DNA from: Rickettsiales bacterium
GTDB lineage: Bacteria > Pseudomonadota > Alphaproteobacteria > Rs-D84
DNA length: 5,768 bases
Assembly (NCBI GenBank): GCA_031259365.1
Contig: JAIRLP010000080.1
Span: 1 to 5,768 of the forward strand
Direction of reading: 5' to 3'
Shown: positions 1 through 5,768 of the stretch, piece by piece
Layout of the letters: each line of letters opens with the position of its first letter
Position numbering within the stretch: the first letter of the stretch is position 1
Notes under the pieces: generated by a model
Databases searched by the model: none
What the model was told of the DNA's origin: nothing
The model's input: only the letters and a program-made list of their open reading frames with translations
Translations under genes and position numbers: made by a program

Positions 1-465
1 CAAGTGTGACCCGCGATGCAAAACATTTGCGGATTTTAATAATTGCTTTGCACGCGATTCTGCCGTATCTTCGTCCACACCATTTGCCAACATTGGCAGC
101 ACAACATTTTCTAATGCAGTAAAATCAGACAACAGATTATGGCGTTGATAAACAAATCCGATCTTACGGCGGCGCATCAAAGTACGCATTTCATCATCCA
201 TCTTTTGAACGGATGTACCAGATAATAAAATACTGCCACCCGACGGTTTATCCAACAATCCAACGCATTGCAGCAATGTTGATTTACCACAACCCGAAGG
301 CCCCACCATTGCAACAATTTCACCACGACGCAGATCAAATCCGCCACCACGTAAAATATGCAAAGGCTGCCCACCTTCCATAAAGGTTTTCTTGATATCC
401 CGTACGCTTAATACCACATCACCTTTTGGGGAAACTTTGGATAAAGATTTCAATATGTTTGTCAT
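1..465 (-). CDS. lolD: Lipoprotein-releasing ABC transporter ATP-binding protein LolD (N-terminal 155 codons; 3' end lies beyond the left edge)
   Basis: The minus-strand frame opens at ATG 465 and stays open to position 1. It is missing from the supplied track because no stop lies in the window. My translation: MTNILKSLSKVSPKGDVVLSVRDIKKTFMEGGQPLHILRGGGFDLRRGEIVAMVGPSGCGKSTLLQCVGLLDKPSGGSILLSGTSVQKMDDEMRTLMRRRKIGFVYQRHNLLSDFTALENVVLPMLANGVDEDTAESRAKQLLKSANVLHRGSHL. Walker A GPSGCGKST lies at 277..303. The Q-loop segment GFVYQRHNLLSDFTALENV closely parallels E. coli LolD as I recall it (GFIYQFHHLLPDFTALENV). An AAGGGGA RBS sits in the 17-nt gap after the upstream permease stop. Confidence 0.85.
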   Translation of the reverse strand, partial: MTNILKSLSKVSPKGDVVLSVRDIKKTFMEGGQPLHILRGGGFDLRRGEIVAMVGPSGCGKSTLLQCVGLLDKPSGGSILLSGTSVQKMDDEMRTLMRRRKIGFVYQRHNLLSDFTALENVVLPMLANGVDEDTAESRAKQLLKSANVLHRGSHL

Positions 466-482
466 GTCTGTGTCCCCTTTAA

Positions 483-1739
483 TTATTCGTTACGCAATAC
501 ATCTACTGGATCTGTATTTGCAGCACGCCACGCCGGATACAGTGTCGCCAAGAACGCCAATGCGACCGCAATCAATGCAATACCAATAACATTTGATGCG
601 ATCAATTTGGATGGCAATTCTGATAAATAATATAATTCTGATGGGAACAAATCACGCCCTGTTAACCATTGGAAGAATTGTCGGATTGGTTCAATATAAG
701 TTGCGATCAAGATACCCAAACCAGTTCCCAGCGCGGCCCCAATAACGCCAATGCTGGTTCCGGTCAAAATAAAGATCTTCATCATTGAATGACGGGATAC
801 GCCAAACGTACGCAATACGGCAATATCTTTGGATTTATCTTTTACCATCATAACCAGTGAAGATACGATGTTAAATGCAGCCACAATAACGATCAACATT
901 AATATAAGGAACATCACATTAGATTCAACCTGCAACGCGCCCACAAAGCCGCGATTTAAATCACGCCAGTCACGGACCACAAAACCTTCTGGCAATAATG
1001 TAGACAATGAATCACGAACAGCTGTTGTTTTTTCTGGATCTTTCAAAAACAGATCAATGTGTGTGACACTTTCACCGATGTTCAAATATTTTTGTGCAGT
1101 TTCGATTGGCATAAAGATATAACCAGAATCATATTCATACATTCCCATAAAGAATGAAGACATAACTGGATAAGACATAATACGTGGCATCATGCCAAAT
1201 GCTGTTGGCGTACCACCATTTGCAGATACCAATGATACTTTGTCACCCATTGTCACACGCAAAGATCTGGACAATGAATTACCCATGATTAATTCACCGT
1301 CTTTGATTGCATCCAAAGCTTTGCCATAAATCTTGGTGCTGTTAACCGTCTTGGCTTTTAGATCAGACAGACGAATGCCGCGAACCATGGCGCCTGAATT
1401 GTTACCATTGGCGGACACCATTACTTGGCCTTCGGCAATTGGCACAATACCAGTTGCGTGCGCGGCCACAACTTTGTTCTGTTTCATTTTATCGATCAAA
1501 AAATCATAATCTTGGATTGCGCCATCTTGGTGGTAAACAACCACATGCCCATTCATCCCAACAATACGAGACAGCAATGTATCATGGAAACCGCCCATCA
1601 CAGACATCACAACAATCAATGTTGCAACACCCAGCATAATCCCCAACAATGAAATCCATGAAATAATGGACGTAAATTTTTCTTTGCGTTTTGCGCGCAA
1701 ATACCGGAAAGCGACCTTTCTTTCTAATTTTGAAAACAT
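483..1739 (-). CDS. lolC: Lipoprotein-releasing system transmembrane permease, LolC/LolE family (FtsX/MacB-type; the only permease gene next to lolD, so possibly a LolF-like homodimer)
   Basis: 418-aa ORF with an ATG start. The N-terminus KVAFRYLRAKRKEKFTSIISWISLLGIMLGVATLIVVMSVMGGF is the characteristic LolC/E opening (RYLR..., TM1, SVMxGF). A roughly 200-aa periplasmic domain separates TM1 from a C-terminal three-TM FtsX-type bundle (VMFLILMLIVIVAAFNIVSSLVMMVKDKSKDIAVLRTFG...). Length and position directly upstream of lolD match Lol operons. The C-versus-E (or F) subtype cannot be decided by eye, so the symbol is approximate. Confidence 0.85.
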   Translation of the reverse strand: MFSKLERKVAFRYLRAKRKEKFTSIISWISLLGIMLGVATLIVVMSVMGGFHDTLLSRIVGMNGHVVVYHQDGAIQDYDFLIDKMKQNKVVAAHATGIVPIAEGQVMVSANGNNSGAMVRGIRLSDLKAKTVNSTKIYGKALDAIKDGELIMGNSLSRSLRVTMGDKVSLVSANGGTPTAFGMMPRIMSYPVMSSFFMGMYEYDSGYIFMPIETAQKYLNIGESVTHIDLFLKDPEKTTAVRDSLSTLLPEGFVVRDWRDLNRGFVGALQVESNVMFLILMLIVIVAAFNIVSSLVMMVKDKSKDIAVLRTFGVSRHSMMKIFILTGTSIGVIGAALGTGLGILIATYIEPIRQFFQWLTGRDLFPSELYYLSELPSKLIASNVIGIALIAVALAFLATLYPAWRAANTDPVDVLRNE

Positions 1740-1757
1740 TTAAAAACCTTTTTAATT

Positions 1758-3095
1758 TTACATATCCAAGTAATCGCGCAGATCATCGCCAAACAACGGC
1801 GTCATGTTCTGGCTTGGCATCCCGGCATCGGCGATAGAGATTATGCGCGGGGACATAAACACGACCAACTCGGCAAATGGGCTGATCAGTGTTTCAGGTT
1901 CTGTTACAAATGAATGTGTTGGAATACCAATAATCACATAATTGTCACCGGGTGAACTTGGGATCTTGAATGATGTCAATTCACCGGCATTTGTACGCAG
2001 AACAATTTTAGAATCAATTTTCTTGGTTCCTGCATAATCACCGTATTTACCAGTTGCGCCGATCGTCAAATCAGTTTCCAGTCTTTCTTCTTTGCCACAC
2101 TGACCGATATCAAAGCGTGATTGCCATCCGTTTGGAATCACGAATGTTCCTTGGGAAATCAAAACAACGTTACCCTGGGACCCCAAGAATTCTTGCAATG
2201 TTTTGGTATTGATTTCCGGACTGGTCACCAGCGCACGACCAACGACACCTGGGATGGACATTCTGACATTCTTATCACCAAATGCCGGCAACATATTCAT
2301 CCAAATGATTGGATTGTCTGTACGTGGATAGACGCGGTATACATCAATATCCCACGCAACCATATATTTCTTGGAACCAACATCTGCGACAATTCTGCCA
2401 ACTTCGCGTTCTGTTTGATAATTGCCTTCGAATGTCACAGTCTTGTCTTTCCAATCAACTAACAAGTTGCGCAGGTCTGCACCATGCATAGCATCCAACA
2501 ACGCCATAATGATATTTTCATCTTTTGGCATTTTCATCAACCATTTTGCACGATGCATCAAATGAATTTCTTTGGCATCATCTTCATATGAATAATAAGC
2601 GCGTCCCATCTTGGCGATCAATTCAACAGTATCAGCCAATGATCCAGATTGAATAGAACCCGTAATTTTTTCTGGCAGGTCTTCATCTTCGATCACACTG
2701 ATATTTGTACCGTCCAACAGTTTATCCAGTGTCTCGCGGACTGTCAGTTTTGTAAATTCATAATCATTTACATTAAACGAAGGCAGTGGATCACCAACAT
2801 CCAGACGTACAATTTCAATCTTTTCTTCTGGGATAACAGACAATACGTTTTGGTTATTCCAATCTACTTTACAGCGTTTTGGCAATTCAATAGAAAAACG
2901 GCGCGCTGTATCTGTGGTTAGCGCGGCTTTCTTTGGAAAGATTGGCACAGAATTTTCATCAATAACCAGATTGTTAATAACCTGCACCGTGTCATATTGT
3001 GTTTGGTTCTGCCGACCAAACTGTTGGGTGCACCCCAAGATTGCCGGCACAACCGCCAAACCGCATATTATTCTAATAAATTTTGAATTCTTCAT
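1758..3095 (-). CDS. Outer-membrane lipoprotein with secretin-like architecture (putative liposecretin); function unknown
   Basis: 445-aa ORF with ATG at 3095 and an AGGA/GGGG RBS in the 15-nt gap upstream. The lipoprotein signal peptide is MKNSKFIRIICGLAVVPAILG|C (lipobox ILGC, Cys22, +2 Thr). Residues about 113-180 (TKLTVRETLDKLLDGTNISVIEDEDLPEKITGSIQSGSLADTVELIAKMGRAYYSYEDDAKEIHL) read like an STN/N0 domain. Residues about 193-255 read like an N1-type domain ending in DIDVYRV. Residues about 249-420 follow the secretin-core pattern: LQEFLGSQGNVVLISQGTFVIPNGWQSRFDIGQ, then GDNYVIIGI, then AELVVFMSPRII, matching the canonical ...ELLvFitPrIv ending. That it is a real CDS is high confidence. 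The secretin assignment is moderate and rests on pattern reading only. Confidence 0.65.
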   Translation of the reverse strand: MKNSKFIRIICGLAVVPAILGCTQQFGRQNQTQYDTVQVINNLVIDENSVPIFPKKAALTTDTARRFSIELPKRCKVDWNNQNVLSVIPEEKIEIVRLDVGDPLPSFNVNDYEFTKLTVRETLDKLLDGTNISVIEDEDLPEKITGSIQSGSLADTVELIAKMGRAYYSYEDDAKEIHLMHRAKWLMKMPKDENIIMALLDAMHGADLRNLLVDWKDKTVTFEGNYQTEREVGRIVADVGSKKYMVAWDIDVYRVYPRTDNPIIWMNMLPAFGDKNVRMSIPGVVGRALVTSPEINTKTLQEFLGSQGNVVLISQGTFVIPNGWQSRFDIGQCGKEERLETDLTIGATGKYGDYAGTKKIDSKIVLRTNAGELTSFKIPSSPGDNYVIIGIPTHSFVTEPETLISPFAELVVFMSPRIISIADAGMPSQNMTPLFGDDLRDYLDM

Positions 3096-3110
3096 ATCTA
3101 CCCCAGTCCT

Positions 3111-3434
3111 TTATATGTTCATGACTTTTTCAAATTCTTCCAAAGTCATTTCATGTATTGGTTTCTGCGTTGGCGTGGTTAGGGTTTGAACCTTTTGGTA
3201 TTGATCCCTAAATCTTTCTATCACGGCTGCGACTTCTGCGTTTATTGGCGTTTTGTCGCTTTGCATTTTCATTGCATAGTCTACTATAAATTCCAGCGTG
3301 TCCGCAGCAAAAAAACGTCCCACATAGTTTTCCATGGCAATTCCCCCCTTTTGCACACAAATAGCGGACATAATTGTCGTCATTTGGTTGTAAAAATTAG
3401 CCAGTCTAATAAAATTATCTACACTATGTGCCAT
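3111..3434 (-). CDS. Hypothetical small cytoplasmic protein (107 aa), first gene of the secretin-like/lol cluster
   Basis: The track ORF 3111..3488 begins at a TTG with no RBS. The in-frame ATG at 3434 is preceded by GAAAGGCGGGACCA (GAAAGG/GGCGGGA RBS) and lies downstream of a candidate TATAAT. Product: MAHSVDNFIRLANFYNQMTTIMSAICVQKGGIAMENYVGRFFAADTLEFIVDYAMKMQSDKTPINAEVAAVIERFRDQYQKVQTLTTPTQKPIHEMTLEEFEKVMNI. It has no signal peptide, no TM segment and no motif I recognise. The composition looks helical with an acidic C-terminus. Its stop is 15 nt before the next gene's ATG. Confidence 0.6.
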   Translation of the reverse strand: MAHSVDNFIRLANFYNQMTTIMSAICVQKGGIAMENYVGRFFAADTLEFIVDYAMKMQSDKTPINAEVAAVIERFRDQYQKVQTLTTPTQKPIHEMTLEEFEKVMNI

Positions 3435-3458
3435 TGGTCCCGCCTTTCTCTTTCCCTT

Positions 3459-3488
3459 ATTATAAAAACTATTGCCCCAGTAAAGCAA
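3459..3488 (-). promoter_or_regulatory. Candidate sigma70-type promoter for the small-protein/secretin-like/lolCD cluster
   Basis: Minus-strand reading gives TTGCTT (3488..3483), an 18-nt spacer, then a perfect TATAAT (3464..3459). The predicted TSS near 3452 leaves a leader of about 18 nt containing the RBS for ATG 3434. Sequence match only. Confidence 0.35.
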
Positions 3489-3500
3489 TTAAATTATAAT
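3472..3500 (+). promoter_or_regulatory. Candidate sigma70-type promoter for the small lipoprotein gene
   Basis: TTGCCC (3472..3477), a 17-nt spacer, then a perfect TATAAT (3495..3500). The predicted TSS near 3507-3508 would give ATG 3511 a very short leader and exclude ATG 3499. It overlaps the minus-strand promoter candidate. Sequence match only. Confidence 0.3.
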
Positions 3501-3510
3501 GGAAACCATA

Positions 3511-3897
3511 ATGATAGGAAAAGTCAGACTTTTATCTCTTTTGCTTATTTTGGCTGCTTGTTCATCCGTGAATACAGGCAGTATTGATGATGCAACTATT
3601 TTAAACTGGGAAAATGAAATGGTTACCACCGAACAGTTTGTTCGTGATCACAGAAGATGTTTGGGAATAACTCGCCCTGCCCATGCGCCAAGATCCAGGA
3701 TAGCCAAATTGATCTCTCCTAACCAAAGTGGCCAAATGCCAGATTGGGATGGATTATGGGTTACTTTCCAGTCAAACGAACACCAAGATGTTGGCCAACG
3801 CTCGTTAATGTCAATCCCCCCTAATTCCAGTTCTAAATCTGTTGGCGCATACCGTAAATGCATGTTCAGACGCGGATATTTGTTACGGGCTAGTTAA
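3511..3897 (+). CDS. Small lipoprotein (128 aa precursor), unknown function
   Basis: The track ORF starts at ATG 3499 (METIM...). ATG 3511 gives a textbook lipoprotein signal peptide, MIGKVRLLSLLLILAA|C (lipobox LAAC, Cys codon 3559..3561, +2 Ser), with GGAA 6 nt upstream. The mature part is polar and carries two further cysteines (HRRCLG and YRKCMFRRGY near the C-terminus). The antisense ORF 3648..3863 is a shadow. Confidence 0.75.
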   Translation: MIGKVRLLSLLLILAACSSVNTGSIDDATILNWENEMVTTEQFVRDHRRCLGITRPAHAPRSRIAKLISPNQSGQMPDWDGLWVTFQSNEHQDVGQRSLMSIPPNSSSKSVGAYRKCMFRRGYLLRAS

Positions 3898-4694: not shown

Positions 4695-5768
4695 ATGAAC
4701 CTGTTTGATTCATCTTTCTTATGTCTTGATATTGGAACATCGATTGTACGGGCGGTGGCTCATCGTGTTCGATCGGGGCGCATTACCAGATCTGCACTGT
4801 TTACCGTATCCAGTACCGATACCGTTTTCGCCATTAAATCTGCGGTTGATGAATTAGAAAAGCAAATCTGTTCCAGATTTGATTCAGCATATATCACTGG
4901 AAACTTTGGCAAGGCTGAATTTGAAATTGTCGCCAAAAGCACCACATGGTCCGGTGAACACAAAATCACAACATCAGATATCCGACATCAAATTTCGCAG
5001 ATAAAGCCAAATGAAGGCTTTTATCCGATGCATGTTATTCCGCTGCGATATGACACATCGTCTGCCCGCAATCTGTTAACACCAGTCGGTTATATTGATC
5101 GACAATTGGTTTCTGTGTTTGGGGCAGTCTTTTATGAAACGTCCCGATTGAATGAAATTTTTGCATTCTTGCGCCGCGCACATATCCAGGCCGAATTTCT
5201 GGAAGATCCATCATTTTTGTTAGATGCCATATTTCGTCAAAAAAAACAAACTGCCTTGTTTATTGATTTTGGTGCTGAATTTACCAGCCTGTCTATTTGG
5301 ACCAACAGGGGCCCTGTTTTCTTTGATAAAATAGAAATGGGTCAATCTGCTATTACATGCGCCATTGCTGATGAATTAAATATTCAAAAAACAGATGCTA
5401 TGCGCATTAAAAATTCTGTGGCGTCTGTATCTGCAAACGAAATGGATCGATTTACACCAGCTGACACCACATATGATTTTTCACGCGCAGATGTGAATGA
5501 AATTCTGCTGACAATCTTGCTGGACACGATTGAAGCCGCGACACAATCACTGGCTGGCGCCATTACAAAATACATACCAGCACAAATCTTTGTATCTGGC
5601 GGTGGATCTGGCATAGACGGAATTGACGAACTGTTGGAAAATACATTTAAAATCCCTGTCAAAAATCTGGGTGCGGACGCGACAGTGAATGCTTTGTCGG
5701 CATATATTTGGGCAGAACAGGCACCTCGTATCAAGGCCTATTTAAACAGACGAAACAGATGGCAAAAC
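4695..5768 (+). CDS. ftsA: Cell division protein FtsA (actin-like ATPase fold), divergent; 358 codons, 3' end lies beyond the right edge
   Basis: ATG 4695 is preceded by GGAG (4683..4686). I translated the frame by hand and found it open to 5768; it is absent from the track because no stop lies in the window. Phosphate-1 motif: FLCLDIGTSIVRAV. FtsA-like core: MHVIPLRYD...PVGY. Phosphate-2 position: LFIDFGAEFTSLSIW. Adenosine motif: IFVSGGGSGIDGIDELLENTFKIPV. Its position immediately after ftsQ supports FtsA rather than another actin-like protein. Confidence 0.8.
   Translation, partial: MNLFDSSFLCLDIGTSIVRAVAHRVRSGRITRSALFTVSSTDTVFAIKSAVDELEKQICSRFDSAYITGNFGKAEFEIVAKSTTWSGEHKITTSDIRHQISQIKPNEGFYPMHVIPLRYDTSSARNLLTPVGYIDRQLVSVFGAVFYETSRLNEIFAFLRRAHIQAEFLEDPSFLLDAIFRQKKQTALFIDFGAEFTSLSIWTNRGPVFFDKIEMGQSAITCAIADELNIQKTDAMRIKNSVASVSANEMDRFTPADTTYDFSRADVNEILLTILLDTIEAATQSLAGAITKYIPAQIFVSGGGSGIDGIDELLENTFKIPVKNLGADATVNALSAYIWAEQAPRIKAYLNRRNRWQN

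Follow-up and report, generated by a model that had tools for sequence, protein, structure and literature searches.

A compact, putative lipoprotein secretin encoded in the lol operon of Rs-D84 alphaproteobacteria

Secretins are gated outer-membrane channels of 12–15 subunits and are usually taken to indicate a type II or type III secretion system, a type IV pilus or a filamentous phage. Among those that are themselves lipoproteins (liposecretins) are BfpB, TcpC and PilN of the type IVb pili and HxcQ of Pseudomonas aeruginosa. According to Viarre 2009, as cited in PMC3230066, HxcQ reaches the outer membrane via its own lipid anchor. Lipoprotein-release transporters of the LolDF type, in which an ATP-binding cassette (ABC) ATPase, LolD, is paired with a homodimeric permease, LolF, have been described for many proteobacteria (PMC9963962). 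Here we describe a locus in which genes of these two kinds stand in one operon. It lies in a stretch of 5,768 nucleotides (nt), referred to below as the window, which is contig JAIRLP010000080.1 of the assembly GCA_031259365.1 from a bacterium of the alphaproteobacterial order Rs-D84. A gene for a 445-amino-acid (aa) lipoprotein of a compact secretin subfamily is located on the minus strand, between a small gene, p107, and the genes lolF and lolD. Our literature search found no paper in which a secretin gene is described as part of a lol operon. The cluster is laid out as follows, with the ribosome-binding site (RBS) in each gap read from the sequence.

1..465, minus strand: lolD, N-terminal 155 codons, an ABC ATPase with the Walker A motif GPSGCGKS; runs off the start of the window
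466..482, minus strand: gap of 17 nt between the permease gene and lolD, RBS AAGGGGA
483..1739, minus strand: LolC/E-family (LolF-type) lipoprotein-release permease, 418 aa; TIGR02212, MacB_PCD and FtsX
1740..1757, minus strand: gap of 18 nt between the secretin and permease genes, RBS AAAAGG
1758..3095, minus strand: compact secretin-subfamily lipoprotein, 445 aa; no Pfam or NCBIfam family, assigned by profile and fold comparison
3096..3110, minus strand: gap of 15 nt between p107 and the secretin gene, RBS AGGACTGGGG
3111..3434, minus strand: p107, 107 aa; no signal peptide or transmembrane segment, predicted three-helix bundle
3459..3488, minus strand: promoter of the four-gene operon, with -35 TTGCTT (3488..3483), an 18-nt spacer and -10 TATAAT (3464..3459); geometry kept in 82 of 85 related loci

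The 445-aa protein had been called secretin-like in an earlier note made from the sequence alone, and profile and fold comparisons both bear this out. The protein has no match in Pfam, NCBIfam, PHROGs or a sequence search of the PDB, and the link was revealed solely by exhaustive phmmer, hhalign and Foldseek. The phmmer search returned 133 cluster representatives, the full-length ones of 380–470 aa constituting the family, and its weakest matches were longer proteins with Pfam Secretin, STN and sometimes TcpQ domains. Aligned by hhalign, 31 family members matched 24 Pfam-positive secretins with a probability of 100% (E 1.9e-39) over residues 80–430, that is from the STN/N0 region to the last pore strand, ELV..L.PR..R. 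The pore domain covers about 120 columns against about 180 in true secretins and is thus about one third shorter than in the known liposecretins, which explains why none of the 31 members matches the Pfam Secretin model (PF00263) at E <= 1. The STN domain is weak in the window secretin (E 0.035) and is found in 7 of the 31 members (best 3e-4). In the AlphaFold2 (AF2) model, which has a predicted local distance difference test score (pLDDT) of 83, the alpha/beta domains at 85–245 score above 90. All 18 top Foldseek matches in the PDB, each of them significant, are secretins, and the best structural match of the modelled protein is BfpB, the lipoprotein secretin of the type IVb pilus (9u5s_A, E 9e-10). 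The TM-scores are low, since the monomer folds back on itself and would take its proper fold only as a ring. Judged by profile and predicted fold, the protein is homologous to secretins in both its pore and its N-terminal domains, and it would be expected to oligomerise into an outer-membrane pore.

The domain order is that of HxcQ and of BfpB/TcpC/PilN, with which the protein has in common a lipobox cysteine, a flexible tether, STN/N0-type and ring-building domains and a C-terminal secretin domain. The signal peptide MKNSKFIRIICGLAVVPAILG is followed by C22 of the lipobox (ILG before C22), a disordered tether (about 23–57), STN/N0-like and N1-like domains (about 85–245), the shortened secretin domain (about 245–422) and a short C-terminal helix (437–444). 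Most of the 31 family members have a cysteine aligned to C22 and about six distant ones lack it, which points to lipidation of the window secretin at Cys22, and by analogy with HxcQ a dependence on the Lol route would be expected. On this evidence it is a compact, putative liposecretin, and its subfamily has not been described before. Besides the short pore domain, it differs from the described liposecretins in that a gene for a helical cytoplasmic protein always comes before its own, which in Rs-D84 is located inside a lol operon. It also stands apart from the systems that secretins usually mark. No pilin, prepilin peptidase, platform or GspE/PilB-type genes were found nearby in more than 120 loci, and no type II, type III, type IV-pilus or filamentous-phage assembly genes within 8–10 kb in the window or the loci of its relatives, nor any PHROG matches. 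The subfamily counts more than 1000 proteins, named 'hypothetical' wherever a source names them and unseen by Pfam.

Two further features of the alignment concern the secretin itself. Cys75 and Cys333 (window about 2871..2873 and 2097..2099) are invariant in 31 of 31 members, even where identity falls to 20%. This suggests that a disulfide links the N-terminal region to the pore domain. The window's clade also carries a C-terminal tail with the short helix GDDLRDYLDM (window 1758..1835, residues about 420–445). A comparable 'GDxL' tail is seen in two further clades; in most others of the 31-sequence alignment the protein stops directly behind the last pore strand. The clade with the GDDLRDYLDM tail is the one with the adjacent small lipoprotein described below. 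The tail could be an S-domain-like docking site.

The Lol-type ABC transporter named in the earlier note is supported by family models and by comparison with solved structures. The permease scores 434 bits against TIGR02212 (cutoff 362.45), matches Pfam MacB_PCD and FtsX, and has four transmembrane segments and a MacB-like periplasmic domain. Its closest solved relatives are the LolF chains 9w37, 9w35 and 9w2w (E 1e-69), ahead of E. coli LolC and LolE, and its residues 1–418 align to LolF 1–411 end to end, with no domain-sized insertions. For the LolD fragment the top NCBIfam match is TIGR02211, LolD (E 2e-37), with a Pfam ABC_tran match. Its score of 129 lies below the full-length cutoff of 308 because the protein is truncated by the window edge, with 155 residues only inside the window; full-length LolD of the relatives has 237–239 aa. 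The permease is canonical in length, with no extra docking domain. Since each locus has a single permease gene within the operon, the system is probably of the LolDF type. The window has in common with LolDF and LolCDE transporters a TIGR02212 permease with four transmembrane segments and a MacB-type domain, nearest to homodimeric LolF, with a probable LolD gene next to it, and it differs from them in the two client or partner genes probably co-transcribed upstream. A second, dedicated Lol set in Rs-D84 is unlikely, given genomes below 1 Mb (PMC12306168).

With both gene products assigned, one of the three readings put forward in the earlier note can be weighed directly. It took the 445-aa lipoprotein for the outer-membrane acceptor of Lol cargo in a lineage without LolB. 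An outer-membrane-type lipoprotein is indeed encoded next to lolF-lolD, and alphaproteobacteria have no recognisable LolB (PMC9963962). The protein is however homologous to secretins over nearly its full length and does not have a LolA/LolB fold, and its homologues are also found away from lol genes. In addition, Caulobacter LolA was itself shown to carry LolB activity, so that no separate acceptor is needed (PMC9963962). We regard this reading as highly improbable.

The arrangement of the four genes agrees with what the earlier note had described: gaps of 15, 18 and 17 nt with an RBS in each, no terminator, and co-transcription from a promoter candidate at 3459..3488. Every gap of the cluster contains a purine-rich, RBS-like stretch. 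Within the cluster, the minus strand has a single terminator-like site (1197..1185), a weak stem of 5 bp, and over the whole window such sites (8) are not commoner than in shuffled sequence (5.5 +/- 2.6); there is no credible terminator between the four genes. An Rfam scan of the window matched no RNA family. The p107 reading frame could be extended to TTG 3488, but its 852 homologues of 105–108 aa align from residue 1, which places the start at ATG 3434. The -10 element of the operon promoter is perfect, while its -35 agrees with TTGACA at just 3 of 6 positions, so that a generic promoter scan missed it. In 77 of the 82 loci that keep the geometry, the promoter lies 20–29 nt (mode 27) 5' of the p107 start, and on comparison with these relatives it can be considered a real promoter of the sigma-70 type. 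With a conserved promoter, tiny gaps and no terminator, co-transcription of the four genes is well supported by sequence. In one relative, tRNA-Gly and tRNA-Tyr are found downstream of lolD, which marks the operon end there.

Gene contexts were compared in a contig scan of the 80 closest loci; for more distant contexts, loci were looked up singly and one metagenome scan was made. Uncultured alphaproteobacteria from guts and digesters, among them 'Candidatus Enterousia', are the closest relatives; they belong to the order Rs-D84. Genomes of this order are below about 1 Mb, have a coding density of about 0.9, and lack most biosynthetic pathways, including lipid biosynthesis, as well as flagella and the standard uptake transporters (PMC12306168). 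It has been proposed that these bacteria live in dependence on a partner, and type IV pili are reported for another lineage but not for Rs-D84 (PMC12306168). As far as the contigs reach, all 85 close loci have the same order: a divergent small lipoprotein gene, p107, secretin, lolF and lolD. The FtsQ/FtsA neighbours differ in about a dozen of them, and even there the small lipoprotein is never parted from p107. Identity to the window is 71–89% for the secretin, 78–94% for lolF, 67–87% for the small lipoprotein and about 45–85% for FtsQ/FtsA. The secretin subfamily is therefore more conserved than the neighbouring cell-division proteins, in reduced genomes without reported pilus genes. The adjacency of secretin, lolF and lolD is also found in two deeper clades (secretin identity to that of the window 34–39%, G+C content 30%), in wholly different surroundings. 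In one of these loci (L086) the secretin gene shares 8 nt with lolF, and in another (L088) the two are separated by 8 nt. In both clades the cluster is preceded by a regulator with two helix-turn-helix (HTH) domains and one or two partner proteins.

Some of the contigs carrying the cluster (L013, L016 (OZ246409.1), L049 and L052) were deposited as Bacteroidales, Muribaculaceae (including a 716-kb 'chromosome') and Bacteroides fragilis. These names are probably due to mislabelled bins or contamination.

The first gene of the operon can be understood by comparison with the other clades. The AF2 model of p107 (pLDDT 78) has helices at 5–29, 33–59 and 66–82, and neither a PDB sequence search nor Foldseek on this model gave a significant neighbour. 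In every other clade the gene directly upstream of the secretin codes for a larger protein of 147–707 aa, which is acidic where inspected and lacks both signal peptide and membrane segment. Towards their C termini these larger partners are homologous to p107 (BLAST links; hhalign 98.2%, E 5e-14). As far as these alignments indicate, p107 is a minimal form of a partner domain encoded upstream of every secretin of the family, and the pair of p107 domain and secretin appears to be the invariant core of that family. The p107 protein could act as a chaperone, a regulator or a cargo.

In sister lineages this core occurs without the transporter. The lol-free set consists of 35 metagenomic loci together with L090, L091, L093 and L094, and in none of these is lolF found next to the secretin module. 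As far as the contigs reach, the order is a double-HTH regulator, an acidic protein A, an acidic protein B with the p107 domain, the secretin, and a conserved bitopic protein. The last of these combines a cytoplasmic part rich in P and Q with a single membrane segment and, in the periplasm, a domain of about 100 aa that contains two cysteines. Since the pair occurs without lol genes, Lol is not intrinsic to the secretin module, and the four-gene cluster is best described as a fusion of two modules. From these comparisons it appears to be a composite in which the p107-domain/secretin pair has been joined to a housekeeping lolF-lolD. The composite nature of the cluster, p107 as a minimal partner domain and a small lipoprotein sharing the promoter core go beyond the earlier note. 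The regulator (about 330 aa, two HTH_3 domains) is conserved upstream of the partner and secretin genes in every clade except that of the window (seen in L086, L088, L091, L093 and most metagenomic loci). It has a faint S24-peptidase-like C terminus in L093, the one scanned for it. It is likely a dedicated regulator.

The neighbours of the lol-free module give the best lead to the cargo of the pore. Two or three polytopic TrbL/VirB6-domain proteins, one of them above the Pfam cutoff, are encoded upstream, and some of these VirB6-like proteins are fused to an M23 peptidase (e.g. in L109). In five loci (L112, L120, L121, L123 and L128) a giant TrbI/VirB10 protein and a VirB11-type ATPase adjoin the module, in two arrangements. 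The giant TrbI/VirB10 proteins have 1402–1540 aa and beta-flower repeats. To our knowledge, no type IV secretion system has been described as using a secretin, and our literature search found no paper on a secretin associated with type IV secretion. The sister-lineage loci nevertheless resemble the VirB/Rvh type IV secretion clusters with multiplied VirB6-like genes known from Rickettsiales (PMC2653234), both in their two or three VirB6-like genes and, in the five loci, in their VirB10 and VirB11 genes. The Rs-D84 loci differ from these clusters in having no VirB6, VirB10 or VirB11 gene within 8–10 kb, and they have no homologue of the bitopic protein in that range either. The sister-lineage pair precedes a bitopic protein and adjoins genes of the VirB6, VirB10 and VirB11 kinds. 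It is therefore probable that in these partner-dependent bacteria the secretin serves an uncharacterised envelope machine as its conduit through the outer membrane. The VirB link raises the possibility that it works with type IV secretion parts.

The same comparison bears on a second reading of the earlier note, according to which the cluster encodes a dedicated exporter. LolF-LolD would then replace the bitopic partner in Rs-D84, dock on the N-terminal domains of the secretin and feed acylated proteins or lipids through it to the cell surface. LolF-LolD does hold the position of the bitopic protein, directly after the secretin gene, in loci with no homologue of that protein within 8–10 kb. 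The STN/N0 region of the secretin, which binds the inner-membrane partner in other systems, is well conserved, and the lineage is one without lipid and other biosynthetic pathways or standard uptake transporters (PMC12306168). The closest described parallel is the Aat system of enteroaggregative E. coli, in which a LolC/E-like permease and an ABC ATPase are likewise encoded with an outer-membrane channel. The window cluster differs from it in having no TolC-like AatA, no AatB and no AatD acyltransferase, its channel being a secretin; domains of the AatA and AatD types were found neither in the window nor in the flanking genes of the relatives. Its permease is a bona fide LolCE/LolF equivalog with no docking domain added, and not a divergent AatP-type protein. 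A comparison with MacAB-TolC-type pumps is equally negative, as no periplasmic adaptor (membrane-fusion) protein is encoded in the cluster or its neighbours. Moreover, ordinary lipoproteins (the small lipoprotein at 3511..3897 and an LppC nearby) need sorting by what is probably the sole Lol system, and the secretin module exists elsewhere without adjacent lol genes, then followed by the bitopic protein and beside VirB-type genes. A dedicated exporter is thus unlikely in our estimation. We consider it distinctly unlikely that the subfamily is the outer-membrane channel of an unrecognised VirB6/VirB10/VirB11-type machine in which LolDF has replaced the bitopic connector in Rs-D84. If this were true, LolDF and the secretin would form a route by which a partner-dependent cell moves lipids or acylated proteins through its outer membrane.

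The third reading of the earlier note, a Lol transporter co-expressed with a major client lipoprotein, fits best of the three, and we hold it with moderate confidence. One sigma-70-type promoter would transcribe p107, the secretin gene, lolF and lolD, and the secretin would be exported by Sec and lipidated at Cys22. LolDF would extract the lipidated protein from the inner membrane, from which it would be handed on, presumably by LolA, to the outer membrane and oligomerise there into a gated pore, as a self-piloting 'liposecretin'. It would be a client of LolDF because it is itself, by prediction, a lipoprotein. Co-expression would keep the capacity of the transporter in step with a multimeric client whose assembly in the inner membrane would do harm, and the task of the pore itself would be separate from Lol. 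What the genes encode, how the operon is laid out, and the conservation of promoter and synteny are established, while the lipidation, the Lol dependence, the oligomerisation, the reason for the linkage and the cargo of the pore are inferred. Several observations weigh against the client reading. Insertions within the cluster are tolerated, which means that tight coupling is not obligatory and that the adjacency could be neutral. One locus (L006) has a 184-aa reading frame between secretin and lolF, another (L007) has an antisense gene for a 211-aa secreted protein at the same place, and a gene for a soluble protein of 205–256 aa is found between lolF and lolD in the following loci. Finally, a cytoplasmic partner such as p107 for an outer-membrane pore has no explanation in it.

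Loci with the insertion between lolF and lolD: L019, L020, L034, L039, L047, L053, L054, L063, L066, L073, L074, L080, L083

Accordingly, the linkage may also be an accident of genome history. The secretin module would have landed upstream of lolF-lolD in an ancestor of Rs-D84, replacing or losing the bitopic gene, and the genes would have stayed together in compact, rarely rearranged genomes, their co-transcription having no specific functional meaning. The small size and high coding density of the Rs-D84 genomes (below 1 Mb and about 0.9; PMC12306168) are in agreement with this, as are the unrelated genes inserted in some relatives and the secretin modules of the sister lineages that have no lol genes. 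Tight spacing is also general in the window, e.g. the FtsQ stop (4664) and the FtsA ATG (4695) are 30 nt apart. On the other hand, the adjacency is kept across three clades with 34–43% secretin identity while every flanking gene has changed, and the secretin/lolF overlap in L086 suggests translational coupling. The lipobox of the secretin is, in addition, the one feature that would create a dependence on this particular transporter. A neutral linkage is therefore somewhat unlikely, and co-expression of LolDF with a liposecretin client remains the best supported explanation. The finding alone does not overturn the Lol paradigm. The fixed place of the secretin in the lol operon would rather illustrate how, in nature, a transporter can be tied to a single client, and the pore would be a concrete candidate for the exchange of material between Rs-D84 and its partner, given the missing biosynthesis and standard importers. 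As to the protein inserted between lolF and lolD, it has a conserved motif, 'YGF(A/S)PE(D/E)I.YF'.

Upstream of p107, the operon promoter shares its core with the promoter of a divergent gene, for which the features are:

3472..3500, plus strand: promoter of the small lipoprotein gene, with -35 TTGCCC (3472..3477), a 17-nt spacer and -10 TATAAT (3495..3500); best match of the promoter scan, 10/12
3511..3897, plus strand: small lipoprotein, 128 aa, lipobox LAA before C; divergent from the shared promoter core

The 42-bp core at 3459..3500 has identical spacing in 82 of the 85 related loci, and the intergenic bases around it are variable. This pattern of conservation is that of two divergent promoters placed back to back. 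Read together, their -35 elements make up the inverted repeat TTGC(C)-N-GGCAA, which might double as an operator. The lipoprotein reading frame as listed starts at 3499, inside its own -10 element, and in 64 of the 82 loci the ATG lies exactly 7 nt past the -10; the start is therefore likely ATG 3511, and the mRNA is probably leaderless.

Its constant place beside p107 suggests that the small lipoprotein is linked to the secretin/lol module. About half of its positions (64 columns) are invariant among 25 species-level relatives, and by this measure it appears to be more conserved than FtsQ or FtsA. It has no match in Pfam, NCBIfam, the PDB (profile search included) or PHROGs, and none to the LolA/LolB families, and its gene was not seen in the loci examined from other clades. 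PulD–PulS offers an analogy, in that a secretin uses the lipoprotein pathway and a small conserved lipoprotein would be co-regulated with it; the C-terminal helix found in the window's clade, and lacking in most clades of the 31-sequence alignment, would be a further likeness. The differences are that the window secretin is itself predicted to be lipidated and that no similarity between the small lipoprotein and a pilotin was detected. A pilotin-like role for it can thus only be guessed at. The small lipoprotein was also considered as a lipid-anchored form of the sister-lineage bitopic protein, which was rejected at an hhalign probability of 0.45%.

A phage or mobile origin of the cluster was rejected on the lack of PHROG matches, an even G+C across the window (0.38–0.45) and a fixed chromosomal position across species. 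The FtsA-like gene on the plus strand (4695..5768) runs off the end of the window, and the family-model scores of both FtsQ and FtsA are weak. In relatives (L001, L002, L004 and L005) the FtsA-like product has 590 aa and combines FtsA and ribulose-phosphate 3-epimerase domains, an unusual fusion.

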